Below are positions 1 through 21,316 of a stretch of 55,324 nt of DNA, piece after piece (position 1 is the first letter of the stretch; each line of letters opens with the position of its first letter). Source of the stretch: a virus (taxonomy: Duplodnaviria; Caudoviricetes); the IMG/VR virus record IMGVR_UViG_3300030419_002654, positions 1-55,324 of that record. The stretch is one strand, 5' to 3'. The notes beneath the pieces were generated by a model, which saw only the letters and a list, made by a program, of their open reading frames with translations, did not search any database and was not told the DNA's origin. Made by a program: the position numbers and the translations under genes.

Positions 1-62
1 ATGAGTAATAAGATAACCGCACGTGGATCTCGTCTTAATATAATATGAAATAGGAGACGTAT

Positions 63-320
63 ATGTCTATTTTTGATAAAGTATTCAACTCATTAGCAGT
101 TGAAGGAAACGAGAGGACAGCTGCTCAGATGGCTAACTTCTACGGTACTACTGTAGGATCTATCCAAGCACGTATCTCAGAAATGAGAACGAAAACTGGC
201 ATAGCTGTTTATGCTAATAAGAGAACTGATACTGCAGGAAGAACTAAAACTTTCTACAGAGTTGGTACTCCTAAAAGAGCAGTCGTTGCAGCAGGTTATC
301 AAGCGCTAGCTGCTTCGTAA
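63..320 (+). CDS. small putative helix-turn-helix DNA-binding protein
   Basis: RBS AGGAG at ~52-56; TAAQMA...VGSIQARISEMR resembles a winged HTH; basic C-terminal half. Confidence 0.6.
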   Translation: MSIFDKVFNSLAVEGNERTAAQMANFYGTTVGSIQARISEMRTKTGIAVYANKRTDTAGRTKTFYRVGTPKRAVVAAGYQALAAS

Positions 321-334
321 GGTTATCACAACCA

Positions 335-475
335 GGATGTCCATGAGGATGTCCACACAGAGGGACCTATCTGAACTCCTTACTTCAATAGTCCCTCACC
401 ACGCTAGGGATGTCCATGAGGATGTCCCTAGCGTACTCTATTAGGATGTCCACAAGGATGTCCACTTGGATGTCC
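335..475. repeat. seven copies of GGATGTCC, mostly at 12-nt spacing
   Basis: copies at 335, 347, 408, 420, 444, 456 and 468; 401-434 forms hairpin ACGCTAGGGA...TCCCTAGCGT. Confidence 0.9.
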
Positions 476-504
476 ACCACAAGCTTTTTATATAAAATAT
501 AAAA

Positions 505-860
505 GGGTCCCCCAAAAGTATCATACTCAAAACTACATATTAATATCCGATAGGGTCCAGGCCGCATTTTATGCGCGGGTCCGTCCGTGGGTCCGGGGAG
601 GGTCAGTACCAGGGTATGATACTTTTTATACTTGAGGGTAGTACCTTATTCGGGTCGGGGGTCCGTACCTTTGGTGAGGGCAGCAGGGTCCAGGGTGGGG
701 TCCTGGCACTGAAAAGTCTACGTGTGAGGGTCTGGGGTGTTTGTGGTCATGGTTGTGGTGAGGGTCGTGGGATTGGTTGAACGCCGCATATTCTGCAGGT
801 TCCTGGTCCTGGGGCTCTATAGTGGGGTCCTGGTGCTGATCAAAAAATTCTGGTCCTGGT
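505..860. repeat. G-rich island of dispersed GG(G)TCC/GGGT repeats
   Basis: many GGGTCC/GGTCC/GGGTC motifs in an otherwise AT-rich genome. Confidence 0.75.
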
Positions 861-967
861 GCATCCCAGTACATCTCATCATTCTCATCAAATCTCACAT
901 TCTCCCATAAAACCACACTAAACACCAACAACCCTAACAAAATCCAAACATACCTAAAATCAATCAT
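626..967 (-). CDS. hypothetical membrane-anchored protein with Pro/His/Gln-rich tail
   Basis: N-terminal TM segment, downstream of leftward promoter at 1079-1107; C-terminal half overlaps the GGTCC repeat island. Confidence 0.45.
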   Translation of the reverse strand: MIDFRYVWILLGLLVFSVVLWENVRFDENDEMYWDAPGPEFFDQHQDPTIEPQDQEPAEYAAFNQSHDPHHNHDHKHPRPSHVDFSVPGPHPGPCCPHQRYGPPTRIRYYPQV

Positions 968-1078
968 TTACAATCACCAAATTATTATATCAATCAAAAT
1001 TATTATTACCAATACTTTCAATATCATATTCAAAACATTATTCAAAATTTCCTCACTTATCAATTTAACATATTACAT

Positions 1079-1107
1079 ATTATATACACATCAATATTTA
1101 AAATCAA
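1079..1107 (-). promoter_or_regulatory. leftward sigma70-type promoter TTGATT-N17-TATAAT
   Basis: reverse complement shows -35 at 1107-1102 and -10 at 1084-1079 with a 17-nt spacer. Confidence 0.75.
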
Positions 1108-1190
1108 CTTTTAATTATATCGAAATAAAAAACTCCACTATTTACAACACTTTACAATATAAAAATAATTAAAATAAATTAAAAAAAGTG

Positions 1191-1219
1191 TTGATTTGAA
1201 ATAAAGTTTATGATATATT
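1191..1219 (+). promoter_or_regulatory. possible promoter TTGATT-N17-TATATT
   Basis: shares the exact 20-mer GTTGATTTGAAATAAAGTTT with the promoter at 1671-1690. Confidence 0.5.
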
Positions 1220-1279
1220 TGGGGTATGTTTTTAATTAATATTAATAATAAATTTTATAAAAATAATTTAATTAGGGTA

Positions 1280-1308
1280 TTGATTTTAAATAAGTTTTAT
1301 AGTATAAT
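1280..1308 (+). promoter_or_regulatory. early sigma70-type promoter TTGATT-N17-TATAAT
   Basis: consensus spacing, followed by RBS AGTAAGGAG and ATG 1343. Confidence 0.8.
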
Positions 1309-1342
1309 AGTTGTATATTTTAAATTAGTAAGGAGTTTTTAA

Positions 1343-1675
1343 ATGAGTAATGTTTATAGAGAATGTAATTTTTTTAATGTTATTAAATTTAGTAGTAGTG
1401 TTAGAGTTTATGATAGTGTTTTAGAATATAGTGATGTTGAGAAATTTGATAGTTTAGAAGATATATTTGAAAAGTATGTTGATGTTGAATTTGTTAAAGA
1501 TTGGTTTAATATTGATGAAGTTAAATTAGAAGATGTATTAGAAGAAAGAAATGGAATATATGTAATGAGTGTTGATGAAGATATGAGTTTATATATTTTT
1601 AAGAATGATAGTTTAGTTGATTTAATTGAGAATTATGTTTTTAGATTAGATGAAATTAGAAAAAATAATAGTTGA
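1343..1675 (+). CDS. hypothetical acidic early protein (C-free gene; no Ala/Pro/Thr/His/Gln)
   Basis: own promoter, strong RBS AGTAAGGAG, intact 110-aa ORF. Confidence 0.8.
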   Translation: MSNVYRECNFFNVIKFSSSVRVYDSVLEYSDVEKFDSLEDIFEKYVDVEFVKDWFNIDEVKLEDVLEERNGIYVMSVDEDMSLYIFKNDSLVDLIENYVFRLDEIRKNNS

Positions 1676-1700
1676 TTTGAAATAAAGTTTTGTATATAAT
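1672..1700 (+). promoter_or_regulatory. early sigma70-type promoter TTGATT-N17-TATAAT
   Basis: consensus spacing; the -35 contains the stop codon of the upstream gene. Confidence 0.8.
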
Positions 1701-1739
1701 GTGTAGTATAAATTGTTAAAAAGTAAGGAGTAATTTATA

Positions 1740-2168
1740 ATGGAAAGATTAGAAAGATATAGTGAAAGTGAAAAAATGGTTGTAAAAAATAATAGAAAGA
1801 TTTTTTATAGAAATGGGTTATATATTATTAATTGTTTATTAGAAAAGAATGGAGATGAAATTAGTTTTAGTGATTTGAAAAAGATTTTTAGAAGTAATTT
1901 ATATTTAAAAGATTTGTATTATAATATTAGTAATGTTGGTGATATGAGAAGTATGTATTGGGATTTTTATAGTTTTAGTGATAGATATATTATTAATATT
2001 AATGGAATGATTAATAGTGATTATGATAATAATATTAATATTGTTAAAAAAGGAAATAGATTATTTTTAGTTAAAGAAAATTTTAGTGTTTTGAAAGATA
2101 ATGGTTATGAAATGATTAAAGATAGTTTAGGTATTTTTAGATTTGTAAGGAGTGAAGATGTTAAGTAA
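1740..2168 (+). CDS. hypothetical early protein (C-free gene)
   Basis: promoter, RBS AGTAAGGAG and a 142-aa ORF. Confidence 0.8.
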   Translation: MERLERYSESEKMVVKNNRKIFYRNGLYIINCLLEKNGDEISFSDLKKIFRSNLYLKDLYYNISNVGDMRSMYWDFYSFSDRYIININGMINSDYDNNINIVKKGNRLFLVKENFSVLKDNGYEMIKDSLGIFRFVRSEDVK

Positions 2169-2544
2169 GGAAAATTTAGTTAAAGAAATTAAAGATAGAG
2201 TTGATATTTTAGAAGGTAGAAATATATTTGAGATATATGATATTTTGAAAGAAAGTATTGGTGAAAATTTAAGTTTAGAGAATGATAAATTTTGTTGTAG
2301 TGAAGATGATAAGTTTGTTGTTTTTGGTTGGGGAGATAGATTAGAATTTAGTGGATTTGATTTTTTTAAATTTGATTATGAAGTATATGAGTATATTGAT
2401 AATTTGATTTATGATGTTGATGAAAGTTATGATAGTTTAGAAGATATTAGTGATAATTTAGATTGTTATAAAGATTGGAAAAAAGATTTTGTATATTTTG
2501 ATATGTATGAAAGTGATAGTTATATTATAGTGAGGTTAAAGTAA
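2152..2544 (+). CDS. hypothetical acidic early protein (C-free gene; start may be ATG 2158)
   Basis: RBS GTAAGGAG at ~2145-2152; 130-aa ORF. Confidence 0.8.
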   Translation: MKMLSKENLVKEIKDRVDILEGRNIFEIYDILKESIGENLSLENDKFCCSEDDKFVVFGWGDRLEFSGFDFFKFDYEVYEYIDNLIYDVDESYDSLEDISDNLDCYKDWKKDFVYFDMYESDSYIIVRLK

Positions 2545-2645
2545 TGGAAATTATATTTTATGTTGGAATGATTGTGTGGGGTTTTTATTTATTAGTAAAT
2601 GAAGATATTGAAGATGTTAAAAGAGATTTTGGTATAGAAGAATAG
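2544..2645 (+). CDS. small membrane peptide MEIIFYVGMIVWGFYLLVNEDIEDVKRDFGIEE (C-free gene)
   Basis: TAATG coupling to the upstream stop, GAGG RBS, hydrophobic N-terminus. Confidence 0.6.
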   Translation: MEIIFYVGMIVWGFYLLVNEDIEDVKRDFGIEE

Positions 2646-2679
2646 GATCCCGCTATACAATTTTTTTTAAATAAATCTG

Positions 2680-2707
2680 TTGACTTCAAATCAAGAATCA
2701 GTATAAT
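2680..2707 (+). promoter_or_regulatory. early promoter TTGACT-N16-TATAAT
   Basis: consensus boxes followed by RBS AGTAAGGAG. Confidence 0.7.
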
Positions 2708-2744
2708 AGATATTATAGATTAAAAAAAGTAAGGAGTAAATCTA

Positions 2745-2966
2745 GTGAATATAAAAATACAAATTGATACTGGTTTTGTTAAAGATGGCGGGACTGGTAG
2801 TAAATGGAAAGTAATAAAAATTAACGAATCTGATTTGGAAGAATTTAGATTGAAAAGAGATTCTTTAGAACCTGATATGGGTTTAGAGGATTTTATTATA
2901 CATGATATTACTAGTCTGATTGAAAATGAGATTGATAATGGATTGTATGGAATATTTAATTATTAG
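2745..2966 (+). CDS. hypothetical protein
   Basis: GTG start after AGTAAGGAG. Confidence 0.65.
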   Translation: MNIKIQIDTGFVKDGGTGSKWKVIKINESDLEEFRLKRDSLEPDMGLEDFIIHDITSLIENEIDNGLYGIFNY

Positions 2967-2973
2967 GAGTAGT

Positions 2974-3066
2974 ATGGAAAATTATTTATTTGGAATTTTG
3001 TTTGTGAGTGTTGTAGTGTTTACAATATTCTTTATAATAGCTATTGATGAGGTATTCTTTAAATAA
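2974..3066 (+). CDS. small membrane peptide (30 aa)
   Basis: RBS AGGAG; MENYLFGILFVSVVVFTIFFIIAIDEVFFK; TAATG coupling to the next gene. Confidence 0.55.
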   Translation: MENYLFGILFVSVVVFTIFFIIAIDEVFFK

Positions 3067-3530
3067 TGGATATGTATTCAAAACAAGAACGAGCGGAAGC
3101 TAATAAAGAACTATCTGATGCCTTAACAGGTGTCAGATGGGAAGACGAAATGATTGAAGATGGAGTCTGTCCTAATTGTGCCGGTACCGGATATCAAGAT
3201 GGTGAATATGAGATCTGGTGTGATGATGCTGAAGAGTATGTAGAAGGAAACGAATGTGATGGTTGGGGAATATTCGGTTGTGATGAAGGTGAGATGACTG
3301 GAGCAAGTTGGGTAGAAATTCTTGAGTACGATAGAAAATGTGCTGACAGAAAAGCATCACTAGAAAGATATGATTTTGATACAGCTGTTAATGAAGTAGC
3401 GGCTTATGTAAAATTTATGTCGGATCCGAGATTATGTGGACAACAAGTCAAGATTGATTATCCTCATTTAGGAAGATACGAAAGAACAAAAGTCGTAACT
3501 GAAGGAATGCGGAAAGCTGGTTTGATCTAA
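3066..3530 (+). CDS. hypothetical protein with CxxCxGxG zinc-finger-like motif
   Basis: CPNCAGTG plus further Cys residues. Confidence 0.7.
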   Translation: MDMYSKQERAEANKELSDALTGVRWEDEMIEDGVCPNCAGTGYQDGEYEIWCDDAEEYVEGNECDGWGIFGCDEGEMTGASWVEILEYDRKCADRKASLERYDFDTAVNEVAAYVKFMSDPRLCGQQVKIDYPHLGRYERTKVVTEGMRKAGLI

Positions 3531-3554
3531 ACCACTAAAAATGAACTCCTTACG

Positions 3555-3581
3555 ACCCTGCCAATTGGCAGGGTTTTTTTT
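3555..3581 (+). terminator. rho-independent terminator
   Basis: ACCCTGCCAATTGGCAGGGT inverted repeat followed by a T-tract. Confidence 0.85.
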
Positions 3582-3590
3582 GTCAAATTG

Positions 3591-3619
3591 TTGACCTCAA
3601 ATCATATAGTTCAGATAAT
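3591..3619 (+). promoter_or_regulatory. early promoter TTGACC-N17-GATAAT
   Basis: same family as the other promoters; RBS AGTAAGGAG downstream. Confidence 0.7.
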
Positions 3620-3646
3620 AGTACTATCAATTAAGTAAGGAGTATT

Positions 3647-3835
3647 ATGGAATATTTAATGATAGAAAAGGAACAGATGGGAATTCCAGCTAGTGCTGAA
3701 TTAATATCTGAGTCTGAATTTAATGATATAATTGACAACAGTAATGTTGGTGATTATAGTCACAGTGCTGGTCTTAGTCATAGTGTATATGATTTTGAAT
3801 TGTTTATGGTTGTAGTTGATAGGAGGGATTCATAA
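3647..3835 (+). CDS. hypothetical protein
   Basis: promoter and RBS. Confidence 0.7.
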   Translation: MEYLMIEKEQMGIPASAELISESEFNDIIDNSNVGDYSHSAGLSHSVYDFELFMVVVDRRDS

Positions 3836-4149
3836 TGGAAAATTTAGTTGACATGATTGAAAGAATCTTAGAAAAATCTAATAGGATCCAACAAGGATTT
3901 TTAGATAGACTTGAAGCTAATGATCTTAGACTGTCTAGGTTAGAAGGACAGATCAAATCTATAGATAATAGACTTGAGGATCTTTATGCAAATCATAATA
4001 ATCAATTAGTTGTGATTGAACAATCAGCAAAATTAAATGCTGGTAATAATGATTCAATATCAAGACAGATTGATGGTATAGCAGATAGACAAAAATTAAT
4101 GTCTGGATTAATTGAAAATATTGAGGACAAGTTGATAGATATGTCTTAG
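3835..4149 (+). CDS. hypothetical coiled-coil protein
   Basis: RBS AGGAGG; heptad-like pattern. Confidence 0.7.
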   Translation: MENLVDMIERILEKSNRIQQGFLDRLEANDLRLSRLEGQIKSIDNRLEDLYANHNNQLVVIEQSAKLNAGNNDSISRQIDGIADRQKLMSGLIENIEDKLIDMS

Positions 4150-4159
4150 GGCATATCTG

Positions 4160-4188
4160 TTGACTTTAAATCAACAATATTGGATAAT
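4160..4188 (+). promoter_or_regulatory. early promoter TTGACT-N17-GATAAT
   Basis: consensus spacing. Confidence 0.7.
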
Positions 4189-4215
4189 AGTTGTATATTT
4201 AGTAAGGAGTAAAGA

Positions 4216-4404
4216 ATGAAAAAATATGAAACTAAAGAAACTAAAAATCTTGGAAACAAAGTTATTGTTTTAAGATATAATGAAGAAAATCCTTTATTAG
4301 AATTTATTGAAGCAGGTCTTCAAGAAGGTTTGTCTTATAAAGGTGAATTAGGTGAACTGTTTGAAAAGGCAGTTGATTTTTGTGTAGATAAAAGGATTAT
4401 ATAA
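4216..4404 (+). CDS. hypothetical protein
   Basis: RBS AGTAAGGAG. Confidence 0.7.
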   Translation: MKKYETKETKNLGNKVIVLRYNEENPLLEFIEAGLQEGLSYKGELGELFEKAVDFCVDKRII

Positions 4405-4417
4405 GGGGGGCATATAT

Positions 4418-5008
4418 ATGAGTTTTTATGGAAGATTTTTTGAACCACAAGAAAAATTAACTTTTAGAAAAGTGTTAGATAGAGTTGGTTCATTTACAGC
4501 AGTAGAATGTAAGGCATATATAGAGTCTAGTAGACAGGCTCTATATGAACTTTATAAAAAAGAAGTAGATGGAAAATATGTTTTTGATAAACAAGCAAAT
4601 CACAAAGTTGATGATGATGTCCAGCCTTTTATAGACTACATAGATGAAGTGATATCTAGACAGGGCAAATCTAGTGAGGGAGATATAGACTGCTGGAATG
4701 ACCTTATATGTATCAGGGACTATATAGTGCAGGATATATTAGGGGTATATGAGGCTGATGGATATGGCTCTCATAATTATGATAATATTAAAGTCATGGA
4801 TATATTGCTAGATGATACTAGCAAGAATCTAACAATGTGGCCTTTATTACAATATGCTAGTGACTGGAATCCTAAAATGCAGGGATATAAGAAGCTGTAT
4901 AATAAGTATGTAGATTTACATTGGAAATTAATTGAAGATTCAGATTCATATGATAGTAATATGACTGTAGAGAAATTTGAATCTAAGATATTATATAATC
5001 TGTTATAA
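4418..5008 (+). CDS. hypothetical protein
   Basis: 196-aa ORF with purine-rich RBS. Confidence 0.7.
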   Translation: MSFYGRFFEPQEKLTFRKVLDRVGSFTAVECKAYIESSRQALYELYKKEVDGKYVFDKQANHKVDDDVQPFIDYIDEVISRQGKSSEGDIDCWNDLICIRDYIVQDILGVYEADGYGSHNYDNIKVMDILLDDTSKNLTMWPLLQYASDWNPKMQGYKKLYNKYVDLHWKLIEDSDSYDSNMTVEKFESKILYNLL

Positions 5009-5196
5009 GATTACTCCTGATCCAATTCTTGGATCACTACTAAGAGAGAGCACTAGTTGCTCTCTCGCTTTATATGCGGCCCTGGCAGGTAGGTAAATTT
5101 GATACCGCATACCATATACCTTCTTTGGAATATAGCACGGATCATATGCGGCGTGTTTTGAAATTTTTTCTGAAAAATTTTTTGGTGTGAAAACTG

Positions 5197-5225
5197 TTGA
5201 CTTTAAATCGTCGTTGTTGTATAAT
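5197..5225 (+). promoter_or_regulatory. early promoter TTGACT-N17-TATAAT
   Basis: consensus spacing. Confidence 0.8.
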
Positions 5226-5253
5226 GGATGCATATTAATTAAGGAGTTTAGTT

Positions 5254-5502
5254 ATGAGTGAAATAGAACATTTAGCAAATATGATTGACAAGTTGATCGA
5301 TAAGGTTGATACGCTTGACAATAAACTTGATACGTTAGAATCTAGTATTGATGATATTAGAATTGAATGCACAAGCACTGAAAGTATGCTAAGTACTATA
5401 GACAGTGAAGTATCTAGTATTTACTCTCAAGTATCTAGTTTAGAAAGTGAGATAACAAGTATCGGATCTACTGTAGATAATATAGACGCGAGGATTGAAT
5501 GA
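5254..5502 (+). CDS. hypothetical coiled-coil protein
   Basis: RBS AAGGAG; regular heptads. Confidence 0.7.
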   Translation: MSEIEHLANMIDKLIDKVDTLDNKLDTLESSIDDIRIECTSTESMLSTIDSEVSSIYSQVSSLESEITSIGSTVDNIDARIE

Positions 5503-5663
5503 GTAAGCCAGATATTAAAGACACGTTTATCGACGATAGTGGTGTAGTGCATCATATAGATGACTTTAGACCTAGTGAAGATGAAGTGCTACAAGAGGGG
5601 CAGTGCATTTGCGGGGCTTTTGATTGCGACGAAGAATACGCGCATTGGACATCAGGATGGTAG
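5499..5663 (+). CDS. small Cys/His-motif protein (CICG...C..EYAHWTSGW)
   Basis: ATGA overlap with the upstream stop, GAGG RBS; translated by hand (54 aa). Confidence 0.6.
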   Translation: MSKPDIKDTFIDDSGVVHHIDDFRPSEDEVLQEGQCICGAFDCDEEYAHWTSGW

Positions 5664-5917
5664 AGTCAGTATTCTTAATGTTAACTATTACGGTTTCGAC
5701 TATTGACGAACCTATTGAGTTTGGTATTAGACAGCCGGACATGGTGTCGTGCGTGGCGGAGCTAGATGGGTTTGATGGTGCTCCGTTCAGTTTATTATTT
5801 ATGGGGCAAAGCATTGATATTAAGACTCAGTGTATAGCGCGCCCTATTGCTAACCAGGTTGTCAATAATGGTAAACCTATTAATGTGTTAGTTAAGGCAA
5901 ATTGTGAGACGAAGTAA
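5657..5917 (+). CDS. hypothetical protein (start likely ATG 5657)
   Basis: in-frame part of ORF 5624..5917. Confidence 0.5.
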   Translation: MVESVFLMLTITVSTIDEPIEFGIRQPDMVSCVAELDGFDGAPFSLLFMGQSIDIKTQCIARPIANQVVNNGKPINVLVKANCETK

Positions 5918-6284
5918 TCTATTTGATATACCTATGAGAAGAGTAAATATGCTAGGCGAGGATTTAACATTGAAAGAGCAGATGTTGGCTGGCCCTGATG
6001 TATTGTTTCCAGATAGCGATTGGAAAGATGAGAAGAGTGTTGACAATGATAAGTATGGTATGAAAGTTCAACATATGATAGGACCTTTTAGTAATGGTTA
6101 TCAGATGAGTGTTATTAAAGGACCTTTTACAATTGGAGGACCTAGCGGGCTATGGGAGATTGCTCCTATGGATATAGGTAGACATTTTATTGGCCAGGCG
6201 TTGCTTGATTGGGGTGATGATGTTATGGGGAGACTTACACTTGACCAAGTATATGAACAATGTAAATTATTGGAGCAGCTATGA
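5904..6284 (+). CDS. hypothetical phage protein
   Basis: SNGYQMSVIKG...GG..GLWEIA motif typical of small phage proteins. Confidence 0.65.
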   Translation: MRRSNLFDIPMRRVNMLGEDLTLKEQMLAGPDVLFPDSDWKDEKSVDNDKYGMKVQHMIGPFSNGYQMSVIKGPFTIGGPSGLWEIAPMDIGRHFIGQALLDWGDDVMGRLTLDQVYEQCKLLEQL

Positions 6285-6415
6285 CAAGAGCTAGATGGAA
6301 GAAAGGTGTTGCCAAAAGAAGAGCAGGTGCACTAGATAGATTGCTAAAGGTTAAAGAACCTAACGAAAGACAATCAAAAGAAATTGAAGTGTTACAGAAA
6401 AGGATAAATAGATAA
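6281..6415 (+). CDS. small basic protein (44 aa)
   Basis: GGAG RBS, ATGA coupling, fills the gap between ORFs. Confidence 0.55.
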   Translation: MTRARWKKGVAKRRAGALDRLLKVKEPNERQSKEIEVLQKRINR

Positions 6416-6416
6416 T

Positions 6417-6608
6417 ATGTTAGATTGGATCTACTTAGATTGGTACATAGTATTATTACCTGTAGCTTTCTTACACGGATGGTTTGTTGGTAGAAGTCAT
6501 GGCGTAAGAAAAGGTGCAGCTGATATGTTCGACCACCTATACGATAAAGGAACAAGAGTTAAAGGAAAACAACATACAAAGATTATTGAAATTAGTTTAG
6601 ATGAGTAA
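6417..6608 (+). CDS. small membrane protein
   Basis: N-terminal TM segment. Confidence 0.65.
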   Translation: MLDWIYLDWYIVLLPVAFLHGWFVGRSHGVRKGAADMFDHLYDKGTRVKGKQHTKIIEISLDE

Positions 6609-6816
6609 TGCGACAAGTAAACCTATACACGAATATAGGTATGAATACAAAGGAAAGCAAAGATGGGCTCAAGTCTATGTTAATGAAGATTCTTTTGATA
6701 TCCATTGTTTTGTGGATAACGTTTTTCAAGGTATAAGAAATATAAAGGGACACAGTGAACTGTATGCAGAGAATGCTGCAGAGAATTTTGTAATGGGATT
6801 ATATGACACCCCGTAA
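6601..6816 (+). CDS. hypothetical phage protein
   Basis: coupled ORF; HSELYAENAAENFV motif. Confidence 0.65.
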   Translation: MSNATSKPIHEYRYEYKGKQRWAQVYVNEDSFDIHCFVDNVFQGIRNIKGHSELYAENAAENFVMGLYDTP

Positions 6817-7105
6817 CCAAGAATTTCATCCAGAAGAAATAGAGAACAGTAAGCGGATATTCAAATCTGCTACTCCCAAGTATACAGCAGACTGGTACAT
6901 TAAATGGGTATCAAGTGTGTTCGTATTAGCGGCCATGTCTATGAGAGGTGTAGAAGGTTATCAATTATATGACCTATATCTTTCTATTGTAGGTATTACA
7001 GGTTGGCTTATAGTATCAGTGTTATGGAAAGACAGAGCATTAATTATACTAAATAGCTTTGGACTTTTGTTCTTATTAAGAACATTGTTCACTACATTAA
7101 CTTAA
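6803..7105 (+). CDS. small three-TM membrane protein
   Basis: three hydrophobic helices; W.DRALIILN motif. Confidence 0.7.
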   Translation: MTPRNQEFHPEEIENSKRIFKSATPKYTADWYIKWVSSVFVLAAMSMRGVEGYQLYDLYLSIVGITGWLIVSVLWKDRALIILNSFGLLFLLRTLFTTLT

Positions 7106-9558: not shown

Positions 9559-10156
9559 AGTATTAGATAATTGCATTTATATTTTTAAAAACCTTCTTAC
9601 AGAACAAGAGTGTGATGAGATAATACAGCACTTTGATTCAATACAATCTAAACAAGCAACAGTTGTTGATTATAATTTTACAAACAACAAAGGAAACACT
9701 TCCCACACCGACCGTCAAGACCATTCATACAGAAAAGGTTCAGTAAAGTTTTCAAAAGATATTCCTAATGTAGAAAAAGCATTAATGGCAATGGAGTTCG
9801 TTGCTAGTGACACAGGTATAGTATTAACTCAAGATATGGTTGACTTTCAATTAGGAATATATGATAATGTAGGTGATTACTTTAGTTGGCATCCAGATCA
9901 TAAAGTGCAAGCAGCTACGTTTTATCAACAAGTTAGAAAGCTCTCTGCATCATTACAACTTACTGATCCTACAGAGTATCAAGGATGTGAATTGCAAGTA
10001 AGAACAGAAGAAGTGTCTGGTAGAAGTTATACGTGCTCTAAGAAGAAAGGAGACTTTATAGTATTTCCTTCTTGGCTAAGTCACAGAGTAACAAAGTTAG
10101 AAAGCGGACACAGAGATTCATTAGTGTTATGGTACAAAGGACCTGAATCAAGATGA
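9542..10156 (+). CDS. 2OG-Fe(II) oxygenase (prolyl-hydroxylase/PKHD type)
   Basis: WHPD, RKLSASLQL, YQGCEL, FPSWLSHRVT, R.SLVLW. Confidence 0.9.
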   Translation: MTSPPEVLDNCIYIFKNLLTEQECDEIIQHFDSIQSKQATVVDYNFTNNKGNTSHTDRQDHSYRKGSVKFSKDIPNVEKALMAMEFVASDTGIVLTQDMVDFQLGIYDNVGDYFSWHPDHKVQAATFYQQVRKLSASLQLTDPTEYQGCELQVRTEEVSGRSYTCSKKKGDFIVFPSWLSHRVTKLESGHRDSLVLWYKGPESR

Positions 10157-10563
10157 CAAGAATTAATATAATACCAACATCAGAGTTAGCAGACCAACAT
10201 TTGGTTGCTGAGTATAGAGAACTATTCATGGTTGGTAGTGCATTAGTAAGAACTCTCAAATCTAAAAATGCTGCTAAAACACTCAGTTCGCTACCAGAAA
10301 AATACACATTAAACACTGGACACGTAAAATTCTTTTACAATAAAGGCAAATACCTCCATAAAAGATACAAAGAACTTATTGCTGAAATGAAAGCAAGAGG
10401 TATGAATCCAGATCCGGAACGCAAGTTTAAAAGAGAACAATGGCCAGACATTTTATATAATGATTGGACACCTTCACCAGAAGAACAATTGATAGTTCGT
10501 CAAAGAATTCAAGAGCGAATTGACCAGAAACCTGACTGGTATAGATGGACAAAAACAAGTTGA
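10153..10563 (+). CDS. denV: pyrimidine-dimer DNA glycosylase / endonuclease V
   Basis: MTRIN..., LADQHLVAEYREL, GHVKFFYNK and KPDWYR match T4 DenV. Confidence 0.95.
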   Translation: MTRINIIPTSELADQHLVAEYRELFMVGSALVRTLKSKNAAKTLSSLPEKYTLNTGHVKFFYNKGKYLHKRYKELIAEMKARGMNPDPERKFKREQWPDILYNDWTPSPEEQLIVRQRIQERIDQKPDWYRWTKTS

Positions 10564-12876: not shown

Positions 12877-13145
12877 TGGACAAGGTAGCACAACTAATAT
12901 CCGAGTTCGGATTTCCAGTAGTACTGGCACTCGGAATGGGCTACTTTATATACTTTGTATGGAAGTTTGTAACGCTTGAGTTAAAGCCTCAGCTAGGCAA
13001 ATCTTCCACTGAGCTGATCCGACTTCTGGATCAAATTAGAATGTTAGATAATGATTTGATTAGACTTCAACAGAAAGTTGATACTGTATTGGAGTATAAA
13101 GAGACGCAAGAGAAAAAAGCGTTAGAGGTAAAGAAGAAGAAATGA
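12876..13145 (+). CDS. single-TM plus coiled-coil membrane protein (holin-like)
   Basis: FGFPVV..TM then RMLDNDLIRLQ; basic C-terminus. Confidence 0.7.
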   Translation: MDKVAQLISEFGFPVVLALGMGYFIYFVWKFVTLELKPQLGKSSTELIRLLDQIRMLDNDLIRLQQKVDTVLEYKETQEKKALEVKKKK

Positions 13146-13654
13146 AAAGACTTTTAATATTATTACTATGTGCACCAATGGTCAATGCAGACATTGTGCA
13201 CAAATTCAAAAACCCATCCTTTAGTGGACAAGGCACTGGGGCGCATTATTTGACTATAGAGAACCAGGAATTCTCAAGAAAGAAAGCGATAGAAGAGGCT
13301 CTCGAGGCAGCTCGTAAAGCAGCAGAAAGAGAAGCTAACAATACAACTCTGGCAAAATTCATCAGAAATTTAGAGAGCAGGATCTATGCACAAATGGCAA
13401 AGCAATTAGTCGAGTCAATGTTCTCTAACGATACAGCAGCAAGTTATGGGTCATTTATATTAGAAGGATCCACAGTCACCTGGCAAGTAATAACAGGTGA
13501 AGACGGAACAGATTATATCCGTTTAACAATTGTTGCAGAAGATGGTACAACAACAGAAATAGAGATACCTGTAGGAACAGGATACTTTGGAGGAGATGTA
13601 GATGATAGCGGCGGTTCGAGCGACGGCGGCGGTGGTTCTGACGGCGGTTCTTAG
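13142..13654 (+). CDS. csgF: curli assembly protein CsgF-like
   Basis: signal peptide, then HKFKNPSFSG (cf. F.F.NP.FGG), FIRNLESRIYAQMAKQL, GTTTEIEIP. Confidence 0.85.
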   Translation: MKRLLILLLCAPMVNADIVHKFKNPSFSGQGTGAHYLTIENQEFSRKKAIEEALEAARKAAEREANNTTLAKFIRNLESRIYAQMAKQLVESMFSNDTAASYGSFILEGSTVTWQVITGEDGTDYIRLTIVAEDGTTTEIEIPVGTGYFGGDVDDSGGSSDGGGGSDGGS

Positions 13655-14498
13655 TAGCTGCGCTTCAATACCACAGTGGTCAGACAATCCACAAGATTGC
13701 ACACCAGATCCAGTAGTAGACGTAGTCACTGCTGTTAAGTATCCGTTTAAAAGAAACTATATCTGTGTTAATGAACCAGAGGTAGTTAAACTACCATCAT
13801 ACATTCAATTATTAGAACTACCACCAGCAGAAACTAAGCCGGTAGTTGCAGTATATAAATTTTTAGACAAGACAGGACAAAGAAAAGAAGCTCCAAATAT
13901 TGCATTGTTTTCAACAGCAGTGACACAAGGTGGAGTTGAAATGTTAATAGATGCTCTAAAGACAGCAGGTGGAGGTACCTGGTTTAGAGTAGTAGAAAGA
14001 CAAGGGATTGATCATCTAGTTAGAGAAAGGCAGATCATTAGAAGTGCAAGAGATGAAGCTGCTAAGAAACTAGGTGAAGAATCTAAAGGGGTTGGCCCAC
14101 TGTTATTCGCAGGAATAATAATTGAGGGCGGCGTAATAGGTTATGATAGTAATGTCAGAACGGGAGGACGTGGAGCACGTTATCTCGGAATTGGCAGAAC
14201 GAAGCAATATCGAGAAGATGTTGTTACAGTTTCATTAAGAGCAGTTTCTGTTCTTAGTGGAGAAGTTTTATTAAACGTCCAGAGTACAAAGACTATTCTA
14301 AGTTATGGATCCAGCGGTGATATTTTTAGATTTATTGAGCAGGGTACAAGATTAGTTGAGTATGAGGATGGTGTCGGTAATAATGAGTCAGTGACATACG
14401 CAGTACGAACAGCAATTGAAGCTGCAGTACTGGAATTAGTATACCAGGGCGACGAACGTGGCTTCTGGACAATTAAAGAGGAAAATGAAAATGAATAA
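13602..14498 (+). CDS. csgG: curli secretion channel CsgG (lipoprotein)
   Basis: lipobox LSSC; VAVYKFLDKTGQRK, FSTAVTQG, WFRVVERQG, ERQIIR, IIEGGVIGYDSN. Confidence 0.92.
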   Translation: MIAAVRATAAVVLTAVLSSCASIPQWSDNPQDCTPDPVVDVVTAVKYPFKRNYICVNEPEVVKLPSYIQLLELPPAETKPVVAVYKFLDKTGQRKEAPNIALFSTAVTQGGVEMLIDALKTAGGGTWFRVVERQGIDHLVRERQIIRSARDEAAKKLGEESKGVGPLLFAGIIIEGGVIGYDSNVRTGGRGARYLGIGRTKQYREDVVTVSLRAVSVLSGEVLLNVQSTKTILSYGSSGDIFRFIEQGTRLVEYEDGVGNNESVTYAVRTAIEAAVLELVYQGDERGFWTIKEENENE

Positions 14499-15219
14499 AT
14501 TTATATTAGGCCTAAGTTTAATCATGTTTCCATTCTTTACATATGCTGCTGCCACTGATGATAACGAAATTAATATAGACCAAGTTGGTGACACTCTTGT
14601 TCTATACATTGACCAAATCGGTTATGGTAACAAAATGGGACTGAATAACTTTTCAAGTGGTTCAAGTGCTATGCCAATAACTGGTTCGTCTTTAACCTTC
14701 AATATCGATCAGATTGGTAATGAAAATTTGCTTTATGGAGAGGTTACAGCGGATAGTTCATCTTACACTTTAGAGTGGAATGGTGATTCTAACGTATGGG
14801 ACTGGATGATTGGTGATTCAGGTAGTTCAGATAACTCGAACTTCCTAGTAGACATCACTGGTGATTCCAATACTATGGATCTCGACCAAGGGACAAATTT
14901 ATCAGCTGAAAGATTGGATCTTGATTTAACCGTCATAGGTGACTCAAACGTATTTGATGTAGACATTGACGTAGATGATGCTGTTTGGAACATGGACATT
15001 ACAGGTGGTTCAAACAACATAAACACAATGCAGAAAGATGGAGCTGAACAAGAAATTAATTTAACACTTGTTGGTTCTTCTGCTGATGTTGATATCAACC
15101 AAATGAGTGGAACATGCCCTCAAGGTATTTCTACTTGTAATGGTATCATAACATTAGACATTGATTCAGAAAATGCTACTATTCAAATCAATCAGAAAGA
15201 CGCTACTAACGACAGTTAG
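14491..15219 (+). CDS. curlin-repeat secreted protein (CsgA/B-like)
   Basis: signal peptide; repeated I.Q.G..N / I.GDSN beta-arc units. Confidence 0.75.
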   Translation: MNKFILGLSLIMFPFFTYAAATDDNEINIDQVGDTLVLYIDQIGYGNKMGLNNFSSGSSAMPITGSSLTFNIDQIGNENLLYGEVTADSSSYTLEWNGDSNVWDWMIGDSGSSDNSNFLVDITGDSNTMDLDQGTNLSAERLDLDLTVIGDSNVFDVDIDVDDAVWNMDITGGSNNINTMQKDGAEQEINLTLVGSSADVDINQMSGTCPQGISTCNGIITLDIDSENATIQINQKDATNDS

Positions 15220-16327
15220 TGTTGCAACGATAACTGTGGGTTCGCTCTATGCGAGTGAGCCCATAGGTTCTATCACCGAACACAAAGGTGAAGCATACCT
15301 TACAAGAGACTTAGACGAAACACCAATAGCAGTTGGTGATGTTATTCCTGAGGTGTTATTAAACGACACAGCAGAAACAAAAGACGGAAGGATGCTAATT
15401 AAGTTTTTAGATGATGCACAATTAGATATGACTGAATGGACAAAAGCATATCTTGACAAAGTATATTATGACCCAGATCCAAGTAAGTCTAAAATGACAA
15501 TGCGTTTCGTTCAAGGAACAGCAAGATTTACTTCAGGTAGATTAGGAATGGTTCCTAAAAAGAACATTGATCTATCAACACCAACAGCACAGATAGCAGT
15601 TAGAGGAACAGACTTCACAACTACAATTGATGAGTTGGGGAGAACATTAGTTATATTATTACCAGACAAGTGGGGAGGCCCATCAGGAGTTATAGATGTT
15701 TTTAATGATGGTGGATCAATAACTTTAGACCAAGCATATCAAGCTACAATGGTTTCCAGTTTCGATTCTCCACCAACACCACCAGTAACAATAGCGAACT
15801 TAACTATTAGTATGATCGATAATATGTTTATTGTCAATCCTCCAAACGAAGTTAAGAAAGCAATACAAGAACAAGTAGCAGATGACTTAGAACAAGATAA
15901 AGGAATTTTAGATGTAGACTTTTTAGAGTTTAATGAGTTAGAAGGAGATGCAGGATTATCAAATGATGCACTAGATGAGTTTAGTGAGTTAGATATTGAT
16001 GCATTAAATGTTGACTTCTTACCAGACTTATTAGATGTTGTAGAAGAGTTAGTTAGAACGACAGCTAAGTTAGAAGATAAACAAGCTGGCCAGGTAGGTA
16101 CATTTAATTTAGATGGAGCTACTGGAGGCTTTAATAAAGATTCACAATATAATATCTTTGAACAAGATGGAGATATTGTATTCTTCAGAGATGTTAATGG
16201 TACGATTAGATTACAATTTGCAACGGACGCATCTGTAAGATTAGATACCTTTACAGAAACATACGAAGGAACTATATTATTAAATGGTGGTGACGATATT
16301 TTAATTGTCATTACTCAAAGGAACTAA
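15161..16327 (+). CDS. FecR-domain secreted protein
   Basis: D.AET..GRM.I.F.DD, STPTAQIAVRGTDF typical of FecR domains; acidic C-terminal part. Confidence 0.8.
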   Translation: MIQKMLLFKSIRKTLLTTVSVATITVGSLYASEPIGSITEHKGEAYLTRDLDETPIAVGDVIPEVLLNDTAETKDGRMLIKFLDDAQLDMTEWTKAYLDKVYYDPDPSKSKMTMRFVQGTARFTSGRLGMVPKKNIDLSTPTAQIAVRGTDFTTTIDELGRTLVILLPDKWGGPSGVIDVFNDGGSITLDQAYQATMVSSFDSPPTPPVTIANLTISMIDNMFIVNPPNEVKKAIQEQVADDLEQDKGILDVDFLEFNELEGDAGLSNDALDEFSELDIDALNVDFLPDLLDVVEELVRTTAKLEDKQAGQVGTFNLDGATGGFNKDSQYNIFEQDGDIVFFRDVNGTIRLQFATDASVRLDTFTETYEGTILLNGGDDILIVITQRN

Positions 16328-16345
16328 ATATAACAGAGGTACAAA

Positions 16346-16561
16346 ATGTTAGAAAGAATATTAGCAGAAAGATTAGATGTAGATGCAGATTCTATATCAG
16401 ATGAAAAAAATATAGTAGAGGACTTAGGAGCAGACTCATTATCAGTAGTTGAGATAATTATGGATATAGAAAGTGAGTTTGATATTAGCATTCCAGACGA
16501 AGATGCAGAAGAGCTTCATACTGTAGGACAATTAAGAGAGTACATTGAAAACTATGCGTAA
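16346..16561 (+). CDS. acpP: acyl carrier protein
   Basis: EDLGADSLSVVEIIMDIESEFDISIPDEDAE with the phosphopantetheine Ser. Confidence 0.92.
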   Translation: MLERILAERLDVDADSISDEKNIVEDLGADSLSVVEIIMDIESEFDISIPDEDAEELHTVGQLREYIENYA

Positions 16562-17198
16562 GTTATTGTTATTACTATTATTATCTACGCCAGTGTTTGC
16601 TGGAGATAATCACGTGCACGTTGAGCAAGTGGGTAATGGTGGTGATAATGTTGACCTTACAATAGATCAAATTGGTTATGATAATTTAATTAACTTTTCT
16701 TTTGCTCACCAGAATAACGTATTCGAATTTATGCAATCTGGTTCAGGCAACTCTATATCTTGGGTTCCATATTGGGGATCAGGTAAGAGCTGGGGCGGTG
16801 ATGTTGATGGAACAGGTAATAGTGAAGACATAGCTCAGTATGATGGAGCAACATATGGTAGACATATATGGGGCAACAATAATACAGTTGAAGTATATCA
16901 AGATGGAGAGCATACACACTACTTAGATATACATGCTAGCTCTGTAGAAGTAGACACTCACCAAGAAGGAAGTGGCGAACATTATAGTCATGCTTATTTC
17001 TACGGTACCACTTCTAACTCAGAAGTAAACATTACACAAAAAGATAATGCAAATCATAACGCACAAATTAAAATACAAGGTAACCAACCTACAACTTTAA
17101 ATTTAACTCAACAGGGTTCAACTAATCAAAGTTATAACCTCACACAAACATGTTACACTACTGGAGGATGTACAGTAAACGTAACGCAAGGAAACTAA
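16554..17198 (+). CDS. second curlin-repeat secreted protein
   Basis: signal peptide MRKLLLLLLLSTPVFA; repeated x.Q.G..N units; ends VNVTQGN. Confidence 0.75.
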   Translation: MRKLLLLLLLSTPVFAGDNHVHVEQVGNGGDNVDLTIDQIGYDNLINFSFAHQNNVFEFMQSGSGNSISWVPYWGSGKSWGGDVDGTGNSEDIAQYDGATYGRHIWGNNNTVEVYQDGEHTHYLDIHASSVEVDTHQEGSGEHYSHAYFYGTTSNSEVNITQKDNANHNAQIKIQGNQPTTLNLTQQGSTNQSYNLTQTCYTTGGCTVNVTQGN

Positions 17199-17281
17199 TG
17201 AAGGTAAAAGCAAAACTCATGCGTTTTTTAGAATGCTGTTTGGTCAAAGTATCTAAGTGGTAGAGTGACCGAGGTTTTATT

Positions 17282-19445: not shown

Positions 19446-20054
19446 ATGGTAAAATCAAAAGTTGAACAAGTAAAGAAAATAATAGTTTGTGATGTTGACG
19501 GTGTTCTTTTAAACTGGGAAGACGCTTTTCAAGTTTGGATGGAGCATCAAGGGTTCGAAAGAATTAAAGGTCACCAATTTATCTACAACGCAGCTGCTCA
19601 ATTTGGACTTTCTCCAGGAGAAGGTAAGAAATGGGTTAGGTTATTCAACCAATCAGCTGCAATAGGATTTTTACCACCACTTAGAGACGCTCAAGAAGTG
19701 TTAAAATTATTAAACAAGAACTACGGATATAGATTTGTGATATGTTCATCACTTTCTAAAGATAAAAATGCTCAAGAACTTAGGATCCGAAACTTAGAAA
19801 AGATATTTGGTGATATTTTTGAAGAGCATGTCTACTTAGACACGGGAGAAGACAAAGATGCTGCTCTTTATAAGCTAGGCAAGAAGTATAGAGGGTGTTT
19901 ATGGGTCGAAGATAAGGTAGAAAATGCGTTTGCAGGTGAAAAAGTCGACTTTGAATCGATTGTTATGGAGCATGGATACAATATGAACGAAGAACATCCG
20001 TTTTTTGTTGCAAAATCATGGGAAGACATCTACTTCAAGGTGGTAAAGGGATGA
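19446..20054 (+). CDS. HAD-family phosphatase, T4 gp30.2-like
   Basis: CDVDGVLLNW motif I; WVEDK motif. Confidence 0.8.
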   Translation: MVKSKVEQVKKIIVCDVDGVLLNWEDAFQVWMEHQGFERIKGHQFIYNAAAQFGLSPGEGKKWVRLFNQSAAIGFLPPLRDAQEVLKLLNKNYGYRFVICSSLSKDKNAQELRIRNLEKIFGDIFEEHVYLDTGEDKDAALYKLGKKYRGCLWVEDKVENAFAGEKVDFESIVMEHGYNMNEEHPFFVAKSWEDIYFKVVKG

Positions 20055-20790: not shown

Positions 20791-21316
20791 ACCTATGATT
20801 CGAAAAGGAGATGGGTTTCCTTTATTCAACTACCTAGACAGAAAAGCAGGTGAGTTTGTTAAAATCGATTTCAATTCTGAAATCAAAGGTAAGAAAGTTT
20901 TAATATTTGGCTTACCTGGAGCATTTACACCAACTTGCTCAAGTAAACAATTACCTGGGTACGAGAGTTTATTCAATAAATTCAATGAGTTAGGTGTAGA
21001 TCATATATACTGCACATCTGTAAATGATCCATTTACAATGAATGCCTGGTTTGATAATCAGAACATTGTAAACGTAAGATCATTACCTGATGGAAATGGA
21101 GACTTAGCACAATCACTTGGAATGTTTGTATCTAAAAGAAACCTTAACTTCGGTCATAGGTCTTGGAGATATGCATTGCTTGTTGATGGCACGTCTGGTA
21201 AAGTAATCGAAGTATTTGCAGAACCTGAAAAGAGGGACATGGCTGATGATGATAGCTATGTTGTAAGTACTCCAGAAGCAGTTCTTAAATGGTTGCAGAA
21301 CAATCCCCAGAACTAA
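20783..21316 (+). CDS. peroxiredoxin (Prx5-like)
   Basis: LPGAFTPTCS, SVNDPF, LPDGNG, RSWRYA. Confidence 0.92.
   Translation: MSKPMIRKGDGFPLFNYLDRKAGEFVKIDFNSEIKGKKVLIFGLPGAFTPTCSSKQLPGYESLFNKFNELGVDHIYCTSVNDPFTMNAWFDNQNIVNVRSLPDGNGDLAQSLGMFVSKRNLNFGHRSWRYALLVDGTSGKVIEVFAEPEKRDMADDDSYVVSTPEAVLKWLQNNPQN

Follow-up and report, generated by a model that had tools for sequence, protein, structure and literature searches.

Several phages remove a canonical base from what host enzymes meet by replacing it throughout the genome (hydroxymethylcytosine in T4, uracil in PBS1, 2-aminoadenine in S-2L), and laboratory G-less and C-less cassettes place a stretch free of one nucleotide behind a promoter, through which polymerase runs without the corresponding nucleoside triphosphate (NTP) until that nucleotide is first called for. 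Here we describe a natural operon of four open reading frames (ORFs) that leaves cytosine out of its coding strand. It lies in IMG/VR record IMGVR_UViG_3300030419_002654 (Duplodnaviria; Caudoviricetes), of which positions 1 to 55,324 were analyzed and are referred to here as the window. The strict C-free zone, positions 1156 to 2648 of the + strand, comprises promoters, leaders, the four ORFs and their intergenic spacers, and the homologous zone is C-free in 10 of 10 related loci. In those parts of the full-text literature that our search returned, we found laboratory C-less cassettes and no natural nucleotide-free operon, in agreement with a sequence-only reading of this DNA, which had named no described system like it. 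Full exclusion of one nucleotide from a multigene protein-coding operon, kept down to ∼60% protein identity, is thus apparently undescribed.

Like the immediate-early units of T4- and T7-type phages, the operon has tandem σ70-like promoters, an AT-rich upstream tract, strong ribosome-binding sites (RBSs) and small acidic or basic ORFs that belong to no known family. Unlike them it excludes a nucleotide, and we know of no described early transcription unit that does so; in the nearest cultured relative, Pelagibacter phage HTVC008M (147,284 nucleotides [nt]), the longest single-base-free run does not exceed 83 nt, and the minimum C content per 500 nt is 0.088. The order of promoter and one-nucleotide-free stretch, with the first C at 2649, is that of the laboratory cassettes, whereas the window operon is natural, 1.4 kb long, codes for four proteins and has been kept through the divergence of a phage lineage. 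Loss of C in favor of T, confined to the exposed strand, and a change of sign at a divergence point recall replication- or transcription-associated GC skew and APOBEC/AID-type footprints in viral genomes; such known biases are partial and context dependent, whereas the loss here is total, bounded by promoters, extends to the amino acid usage of conserved proteins and has no clear neighbor signature in the adjacent C-poor genes. The operon also resembles restriction-site avoidance (T7 with respect to EcoP15I, and T5), in which composition hides DNA from host nucleases, in that palindromes containing G or C are impossible in the zone; unlike restriction-site avoidance, it keeps palindromes made of A and T alone, affects only ∼1.8 kb, and follows the sense strand and the transcription start. 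Finally, where base-replacement phages change their chemistry genome-wide, the window phage leaves out an ordinary base, on one strand, in one small module.

A protein-coding operon without cytosine

A base count over the 1,493 nt from 1156 to 2648 gives 589 A, 608 T, 296 G and 0 C, as the sequence-only reading had reported, and the share of G inside the zone is 19.8%, against 19.5% window-wide. The second-longest C-free run of the window measures 106 nt (2917 to 3022), and under an independent-base model with C at 0.159 the probability of a 1,493-nt run at a given start is 10^-112.6. In 71 control loci from IMG/VR (651,634 nt), which were the yield of a 16-mer promoter scan and none of which is related to the window phage, all C- or G-free runs are 117 nt or shorter. 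Given this probability, the short runs in the controls and the open frames inside the run, we rejected a chance origin. The run ends, as described earlier, right after the last stop codon (TAG, 2643 to 2645), at a GGATCC (2645 to 2650) that supplies the first C; since GGATCC is absent from the run ends of the other 9 loci, its presence here is coincidental.

The four ORFs and their RBSs stand where they had been placed, at 1343 to 1675, 1740 to 2168, 2152 to 2544 and 2544 to 2645 on the + strand, with one amendment. ORF1 (1343 to 1675) encodes an acidic protein of 110 amino acids (aa) with no known family, and ORF2 (1740 to 2168) a basic protein of 142 aa and the sole gene common to all related loci. 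For ORF3, also acidic, the frame and the end hold, and the start is more likely the ATG at 2158 (128 aa; 2158 to 2544) than the GTG at 2152 (130 aa), with GTAAGGAG preceding the ATG and homologs beginning MLSKE; the family has 6 representatives in a 50%-clustered library and a 43% identical homolog in one related locus (L007). ORF4 (2544 to 2645) encodes a 33-aa membrane-type peptide; in 7 other loci, the homologous gene is part of the leftward unit and is read from the opposite strand. Each C-free ORF is preceded at the right distance by AGTAAGGAG, GTAAGGAG or GTGAGG.

Because all three stop codons are themselves C-free, a stop is expected every 7.9 codons in such sequence (P of 0.127 per codon), and the probabilities of frames staying open over 110, 142 and 128 codons are 3e-7, 4e-9 and 3e-8, respectively; the longest open stretch among 1,000 shuffles was 91 codons. 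Searches of a collection of 5.8 billion proteins yielded 70 homologs of ORF1 and 109 of ORF2, with 35 and 43 invariant columns, respectively. The ratio of nonsynonymous to synonymous differences per site (pN/pS), calculated on the three-letter alphabet, is 0.22 to 0.56 for ORF1 and 0.32 to 0.86 for ORF2, and the AlphaFold2 models of the two proteins reach a mean predicted local distance difference test score (pLDDT) of 74.2 and 84.7. Open frames, canonical RBSs, pN/pS below 1 and confident models show that the C-free ORFs are real coding genes.

None of the encoded proteins has a significant match among known ones. ORF1 to ORF4 and their neighbors gave only subthreshold noise against Pfam and PHROGs; ORF1, ORF2 and a neighboring 154-aa protein had no match by tblastn in 50,697 phage records, and window positions 1 to 6000 had none by megablast. 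Fold searches with ORF2 were not significant in PDB (best E of 0.58) or BFVD (best E of 0.45), nor were those with ORF1 in PDB (best E of 0.09), and in the ESM Atlas ORF2 found no feature score of 0.9 or above and no template modeling (TM) score of 0.5 or above. A winged-helix-like fold of ORF2 is a weak lead from its model. As candidates for anti-restriction DNA mimics of the Ocr/ArdA kind, ORF1 and ORF3 are acidic, and the fold searches that bear on this are the nonsignificant ones just given, for ORF1 and ORF2 in PDB and for ORF2 in BFVD. Rfam found nothing in positions 1 to 7000, and the window has no tRNA genes.

The exclusion of C reaches every class of site. The five residues whose codons require C (Ala, Pro, Thr, His and Gln) are absent from the 411 codons of the C-free ORFs (0/411 against a baseline of 22.9%; P of 10^-46.5), and Ser, Leu and Arg are written with AGT, TTR and AGR only (R, purine), both as noted earlier. 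Among two-fold degenerate codons ending in a pyrimidine (Y), those ending in C number 0 of 181 in the C-free ORFs, 41 of 271 (15.1%) in the C-poor early genes that follow and 1,075 of 3,436 (31.3%) at baseline, and the first of these figures has a probability of 10^-29.5 against the last. Leaders, spacers and internal promoters in the run are likewise C-free. Across related loci, five ORF1 genes (1,659 nt) contain no C, and nine ORF2 genes (3,726 nt) contain 8 in total, namely, six ACA (Thr) codons, a CAA (Gln) and a synonymous AAC. On the sites that a three-letter alphabet allows, loci differ synonymously by 0.07 to 0.66, and no C appears even where divergence reaches 0.2 to 0.65, so that synonymous positions have turned over repeatedly without retaining C. 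The constraint thus acts on nucleotides, not on amino acids, and is actively maintained.

Divergent, strand-following units conserved among relatives

The C-free zone has a mirror image that the sequence-only reading missed. From 870 to 1187 the + strand holds a single G, at 1122, so that the minus strand is C-free there, and GC skew switches from -1 to +1 at about 1122 to 1156; in 7 other loci the segment equivalent to this leftward zone encodes the minus-strand ORF4 homolog. The leftward unit is headed by a promoter at 1079 to 1107 on the minus strand (TTGATTTTAAAT...TATAAT), which matches 10 of 12 consensus positions and shares the family motif of the rightward promoters. The latter are P1 (1191 to 1219, TTGATT-17-TATATT, TG-extended) and P2 (1280 to 1308, TTGATT-17-TATAAT) ahead of ORF1 and the internal P3 (1672 to 1700, TTGATT-17-TATAAT), all on the + strand. 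Where the two C-free zones overlap, at 1156 to 1187, the spacer between the divergent promoters consists of A and T only and is UP-element-like. Downstream, the first intrinsic-terminator-like hairpin 3′ of the C-free unit lies at 3554 to 3575 on the + strand.

All these promoters belong to a lineage-specific early family, TTGAYTTnAAAT-N-TATAAT, with at least 6 copies in the first 5.3 kb of the window and copies in every related locus. Its conserved extended motif TTGAYTTnAAAT spans the −35 region and the spacer (window positions 1191 to 5225; loci L005 to L013). Four of the window copies are the promoters described above: P1, P2 and P3 on the + strand inside the run (1191, 1280 and 1672), and the leftward promoter, which reads from 1107 to 1079 on the minus strand. 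The promoters are σ70-like, near consensus and upstream of small genes, and the same motif is kept in 9 other loci. As the sequence-only reading had pointed out, promoters in the run read TTGATT and those outside read TTGACT (2680, 5197 and 4160), TTGACC (3591) or TTGACA (3732 and 3848); within the family, 12 promoters inside C-free runs read TTGATT and 9 outside read TTGACT. This indicates that avoiding C overrides a better match to the −35 consensus.

The run also begins where transcription is expected to begin. With starts estimated from the consensus promoters, 10 distinct loci have no sense-strand C from −19 to between +173 and +1,423; in four of them (L005, L007, L009 and L013) the −35 hexamer or the spacer contains C and the run begins just before the −10 element. 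Runs that end inside a contig do so close to the ORF2 3′ terminus or at the promoter that follows. ORF4 switches strand between loci and yet stays C-free or C-poor, with no C in the window and one in L005 and L008, which shows that C-lessness goes with the coding strand whichever way the gene points, fully in some lineages and to a lesser degree in others.

The related loci come from metagenome contigs, 10 of them out of 241 pattern matches to the ORF2 alignment, and a C-free run is present at the same locus in each. Read in gene-strand order, all ten show a G-free or G-poor, C-rich segment, then the C-free run, then a gradual return of C. The runs extend over 192 to 1,493 nt: 1,493 nt in L004, 358 and 797 nt with one C between them in L005, 819 nt in L006, 901 nt in L007, 1,180 nt in L008, 419 nt in L009 and 963 nt in L012, with runs of at least 804, 703 and 192 nt reaching the contig ends in L010, L011 and L013, respectively. 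L004, a contig from another assembly, is 100% identical to the window.

At the protein level the loss of C-requiring residues, which the sequence-only reading had proposed to check in homologs, extends through both families. Among the ORF2 homologs (59 to 96% identity), 78 of 109 lack all five residues and the remaining 31 carry 1 to 5 of them, so that the 14,546 residues of the family include 38 Thr, 5 His, 2 Gln, 0 Ala and 0 Pro. The same holds for 64 of 70 ORF1 homologs; in the six exceptions the residues lie in segments that do not align to ORF1 (four cases), in a C-terminal extension (one Gln) or amount to a single Thr. Four "ORF1 homologs" (P0165, P0175, P0183 and P0184) are chimeric, with an ORF1-like part free of C-requiring residues joined to an unrelated part of normal composition, and probably mark contig ends, frameshifts or recombination junctions where the C-free zone stops. 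One ORF2 homolog, P0010, is carried by a contig of 108,828 nt. Conservation in independent contigs and in diverged homologs argues that the run is not an artefact.

Among the 24 sequencing runs listed for window positions 900 to 3400, 20 hold part of it; those listed include 16 DNA runs with near-identical words (shares of 0.37 to 0.96; studies dated 2014 to 2025) and four metatranscriptome runs, whose shares of 0.05 to 0.13 are no evidence of expression. Protein-pattern scans of IMG/VR with ORF2, the 154-aa protein and the ORF2 alignment found no relatives, and the ORF2 alignment had no match in prokaryotic genome contigs and hence gave no hint of a host.

Past the run, C stays scarce, as had been observed. 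A C-poor transition zone extends from 2649 to 6300 on the + strand, with sense-strand C of 0.05 to 0.11 and C-requiring residues at 0.08 to 0.17 for most of its genes (toward the 3′ boundary the two values rise to as much as 0.15 and 0.21), and with its own TTGACT promoters at 2680 and 5197. In the successive genes after ORF1 to ORF4, sense-strand C is 0.054, 0.114, 0.079, 0.098, 0.063, 0.100 and 0.112, reaching about 0.15 by ∼6.8 kb, while the five residues climb in parallel from 0 through the values of the transition zone to about 0.22. The first gene after the run, which encodes a 73-aa protein (2745 to 2966), belongs to a family in which the five residues make up 8.7% of 90 homologs, with 87 of the 90 carrying 4 to 9 of them at conserved positions. 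This family is constantly C-poor rather than C-free, which indicates that being strictly C-free or only C-poor is a stable trait of a given unit. The relaxed units at 2680 and 5197 are driven by the same promoter class as the strict ones, which speaks against a process affecting all early transcripts equally.

Unlike the skew switch of a replication origin, which persists over replichore-scale distances, the skew here is short-ranged: it is extreme over ∼0.3 kb leftward and 1.5 kb rightward, returns to baseline by ∼6 to 7 kb, and has edges that coincide with promoters. Upstream of the divergence point lie eight GGATGTCCA(C) repeats (331 to 477), GC content falls to 14 to 17% at 1000 to 1300, and no initiator was identified. 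The repeats form four 26-nt double units with one inverted pair (401 to 434), directly 3′ of an 85-aa ORF (63 to 320) of normal composition; they may serve as iterons or as an operator array, and the repeats and the AT-rich stretch at 1000 to 1300 might jointly form an origin. Two minus-strand ORFs lie to the left of the divergent promoters. One is a candidate gene of 29 aa at 974 to 1063, C-free, with a TTG start after GTGAGGAAA and no homolog in other loci. The other, of 113 aa at 626 to 967, has no Pfam or PHROG match and has an 84% identical homolog in L008 (positions 1 to 279, also on the minus strand); in both, a hydrophobic, transmembrane-like N terminus is followed by a low-complexity tail rich in Pro, His, Gln and Asp, with many GGACC/GGGTCC-type repeats in the DNA.

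Competing explanations for the missing cytosine

The data require either that sense-strand C is costly or that a C-to-T process hundreds of times the normal rate acts on exactly that strand. We lean toward the former, and give about an even chance to the reading that strong, long-standing selection at the nucleotide level keeps C out of the immediate-early transcripts, or out of their non-template strand, in the face of a hazard to which each cytidine adds. Selection is favored because five amino acids have been given up, promoter quality has been sacrificed, the boundary lies at the transcription start, and neighbors under the same promoter class are spared. The assignment to the immediate-early class, made in the sequence-only reading, agrees with the tandem σ70-like promoters, the strong RBSs and the small family-less ORFs at the head of a same-strand cluster; the timing itself is suggested by sequence.

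Under selection of this kind, host RNA polymerase would start at the σ70-like promoters around 1079 to 1308 and make mRNAs of A, G and U only, which is equivalent to reading a template without G while displacing a strand without C. When infection begins, a penalty would fall on every cytidine of the nascent RNA or on every C that the non-template strand exposes. Candidate hazards are scarce cytidine triphosphate (CTP), chain terminators derived from CTP, such as the 3′-deoxy-3′,4′-didehydro-CTP (ddhCTP) of viperins, a host endoribonuclease or deaminase that requires C, or a C-directed weapon with which the phage itself shuts off the host. ORF1 and ORF2, with ORF3 and ORF4 where present, would be made under the hazard and would act before it is lifted, and downstream genes, C-poor at first and then normal, would be expressed after relief. 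A polar hazard such as stalling or chain termination would explain the few C tolerated at the 3′ end of the last strict gene.

A more specific form of this proposal, which we put forward tentatively and hold to be less probable than the general one, is that the three-letter operon lets host polymerase finish when CTP is lacking or poisoned, or shields the RNA from a C-directed nuclease or deaminase. CTP is the smallest of the NTP pools, and a shortage might come from exhaustion of the pool in very small cells, from CTP-derived chain terminators or from depletion by the phage or by a defense system. A reason at the RNA level, in which no CTP is needed or no C-containing target is offered, would fit the promoter-bounded, strand-following pattern.

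Several observations weigh against selection on C. It and a strongly strand-biased C-to-T mutation predict nearly the same composition, and one feature sides with the latter. At the third positions of Val, Gly and Ile codons, T exceeds A by 64 to 21 (0.75) in the C-free ORFs of the window, and the share of T is 0.57 to 0.88 in the ORF1 and ORF2 homologs of L005 to L012 against 0.51 at baseline; it would be 0.57 if every baseline C became T, and T:A is about 1:1 in the C-poor early genes and in baseline genes. An excess of T is predicted by a C-to-T flux and not if C were simply purged. Only in some lineages is the leftward unit strictly free of C: L007 has just a 70-nt G-free stretch, the ORF4 homologs of L009, L010, L012 and L013 carry 6 to 10 C, and the 113-aa ORF of the window is C-free for its first ∼32 codons and C-rich afterwards. 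Early promoters should fire together, so that a purely temporal hazard alone leaves the difference between strict and C-poor units unexplained. And ORF1 and ORF2, since they resemble nothing known, offer no link to counter-defense.

The main rival to selection, which we consider unlikely, is mutational: the non-template strand of heavily transcribed, R-loop-forming or origin-proximal units, chronically single-stranded, would lose C by deamination to U and hence T, spontaneously or through a host cytosine deaminase acting on single-stranded DNA, and the composition would be an equilibrium rather than an adaptation. Besides the third-position excess of T, which goes beyond what replacement of C by T gives, such an origin would account for a strand-specific, promoter-bounded loss with a sign flip at divergent promoters, for promoters in and out of the zone that differ exactly by C to T, and for an unchanged share of G. 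The C-free ORFs are also enriched in Phe, Tyr, Ile and Val, which C-to-T changes yield from codons for Ser/Leu/Pro, His, Thr and Ala, respectively, and the iteron-like array and the AT-rich stretch adjoin the switch point.

The difficulty is one of magnitude and of selectivity. To bring synonymous C from 31% to less than one per ∼1,000 codons would, by our estimate, take a C-to-T rate hundreds of times the normal one, and spontaneous deamination of single-stranded DNA at ocean temperature should be too slow for this, a point that we reasoned rather than measured. Conserved proteins under purifying selection should have kept some Ala, Pro, Thr, His and Gln, and there is essentially none. Units under the more consensus-like TTGACT promoters (2680 and 5197) keep their C, and the 73-aa family stably keeps its C-requiring residues at conserved positions. 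Strand-specific depletion of C with gain of T, which is not specific to deaminases, is present, whereas a concentration at preferred neighbors is not. In the C-poor genes, the ratio of early to baseline C by 5′ base is 0.62 after A, 0.56 after C, 0.75 after G and 0.74 after T, without a clear signature; by 3′ context, CA (0.51) and CC (0.56) are lower than CG (0.93) and CT (0.89), a comparison confounded by codon usage. Codons ending in a purine show no A-to-G signal. Of the earlier suggestion of chronic deamination, the third-position T excess thus speaks for it, while the complete loss of five amino acids and the C-containing units driven next door by the same promoter class speak against it.

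Two further explanations appear doubtful, and about equally so. In the first, the object avoided is G in the template strand: a modified or damaged G in parental virion DNA, such as a 7-deazaguanine derivative or oxidized G, would be read poorly and select for a G-free template. This is geometrically identical to what we observe, the graded C-poverty of the neighbors fits genes read before replication supplies unmodified copies, and the window encodes several 2-oxoglutarate (2OG)-Fe(II) oxygenases, glycosyltransferases and a DNA-methylase-like domain. However, among the 30 ORFs of the window searched against Pfam and 10 against PHROGs, there is no gene for guanine or cytosine modification (DpdA/Que-type, including queuosine/archaeosine-type, or dCMP hydroxymethylase), the set of oxygenases and glycosyltransferases is shared with HTVC008M, which has no comparable base-free run, and replication genes, too, would have parental DNA as their template, though the remaining genes of the window are normal in composition.

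The second concerns transcription termination. Rho engages RNA that is unstructured, rich in C and poor in G by way of YC dinucleotides, of which it needs several within tens of nucleotides, and T4-type early transcription is Rho sensitive; a C-free nascent RNA could not be bound, and the first transcripts would escape the Rho-dependent silencing of foreign or poorly translated RNA. The run contains no YC and no C-rich tract, trivially so with 0 C; its GC skew of +1, followed by +0.3 to +0.6 in the next early genes, is the opposite of a Rho utilization (rut) site, and C-lessness is a feature of the transcript that sets in at the promoter. Against this, isolated C should be nearly neutral to Rho, yet synonymous C stands at 0 of 181 in the window and at 1 in nine ORF2 genes, and tightly packed ORFs with strong RBSs should leave most of the RNA shielded by ribosomes.

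Evasion of DNA-level defenses is very improbable. With C on one strand only, no palindrome containing G or C can form (none occurs in 1156 to 2648, by construction), a site with both G and C is equally impossible, asymmetric sites occur in one orientation, and whichever DNA acts or enters first would be immune to most restriction enzymes; the one-orientation EcoP15I sites of T7 and the site-poor first-step-transfer DNA of T5 are precedents. The sequence-only reading had listed this possibility, which is weakened by three observations: AT-only palindromes are at expectation (137 4-mers against 138.0, standard deviation [SD] 9.4; 44 6-mers against 42.1, SD 6.3), so that a general avoidance of palindromes was rejected; the other ∼53 kb, of normal composition, can still be cut; and the edge of the zone coincides with the transcription start and keeps to the sense strand both ways, which avoidance of restriction does not require. 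Bisulfite-like conversion, misassembly or the insertion of an engineered C-less cassette (a known laboratory tool, here closed by the BamHI site at the run end) can be practically dismissed, since the same architecture recurs in 10 contigs of different metagenome assemblies and in 109 plus 70 diverged homologs, C-to-T conversion of normal genes would have turned CAA, CAG and CGA into stops where the ORFs are intact and conserved, and the other 9 loci lack GGATCC at their run ends.

We also considered structure-free mRNA as the reason for the missing C and rejected it. Predicted folding energy in the zone is −17.2 kcal/mol per 150 nt, against −17.7 in a control of the same GC content, made of the identical segments with G randomly divided into G and C, and −28.3 in baseline segments. 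Since the control folds equally weakly, absence of C as such does not lower predicted structure.

The phage and the meaning of a three-letter operon

The window phage is an uncultured marine pelagimyophage-like (T4-type) myovirus. Its structural proteins (baseplate, tail and tape measure) have matches among T4-type PHROGs, its 601-aa CHASE2-cyclase protein shares 42% identity with the HTVC008M counterpart and 35% with the one in Methylophilales phage Melnitz, and curli CsgF/CsgG, 2OG oxygenases, denV, RNase H and glycosyltransferases parallel HTVC008M. The sequence is one contig, open at its right end, and its contig end is not a demonstrated genome end; with relatives of ∼141 to 147 kb, the full genome is expected to be much larger than 55 kb. 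Genes for CsgF, CsgG, a curlin-repeat-like protein, a FecR-domain protein and a CHASE2-adenylate/guanylate cyclase cluster at 13142 to 19087, as do gp014 to gp019 of HTVC008M. A denV-type pyrimidine-dimer glycosylase (10153 to 10563), an HAD/NT5C-like nucleotidase (19446 to 20054) and a phosphoribosyltransferase-domain protein (21289 to 21744) might bear on hypotheses of nucleotide pools or DNA damage.

The anatomy of the C-less divergent units is solid, and the causes discussed above are proposals. Whatever the cause, functional, foldable proteins can be maintained in the long term on 24 sense codons and 15 amino acids, and the C-free sequences are a natural reagent, a 1.4-kb coding template predicted to be transcribable without CTP. 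The pattern implies a strong force on single cytidines or template guanines at the onset of infection. If the more specific proposal, of lacking or poisoned CTP or of a C-directed nuclease or deaminase, is true, the three-letter operon would represent immunity by composition at the level of single nucleotides and would point to a C-directed process in the first minutes of infection of abundant ocean bacteria. Naming that force could reveal a new mechanism of defense or host takeover in the ocean's most abundant phage-host systems.

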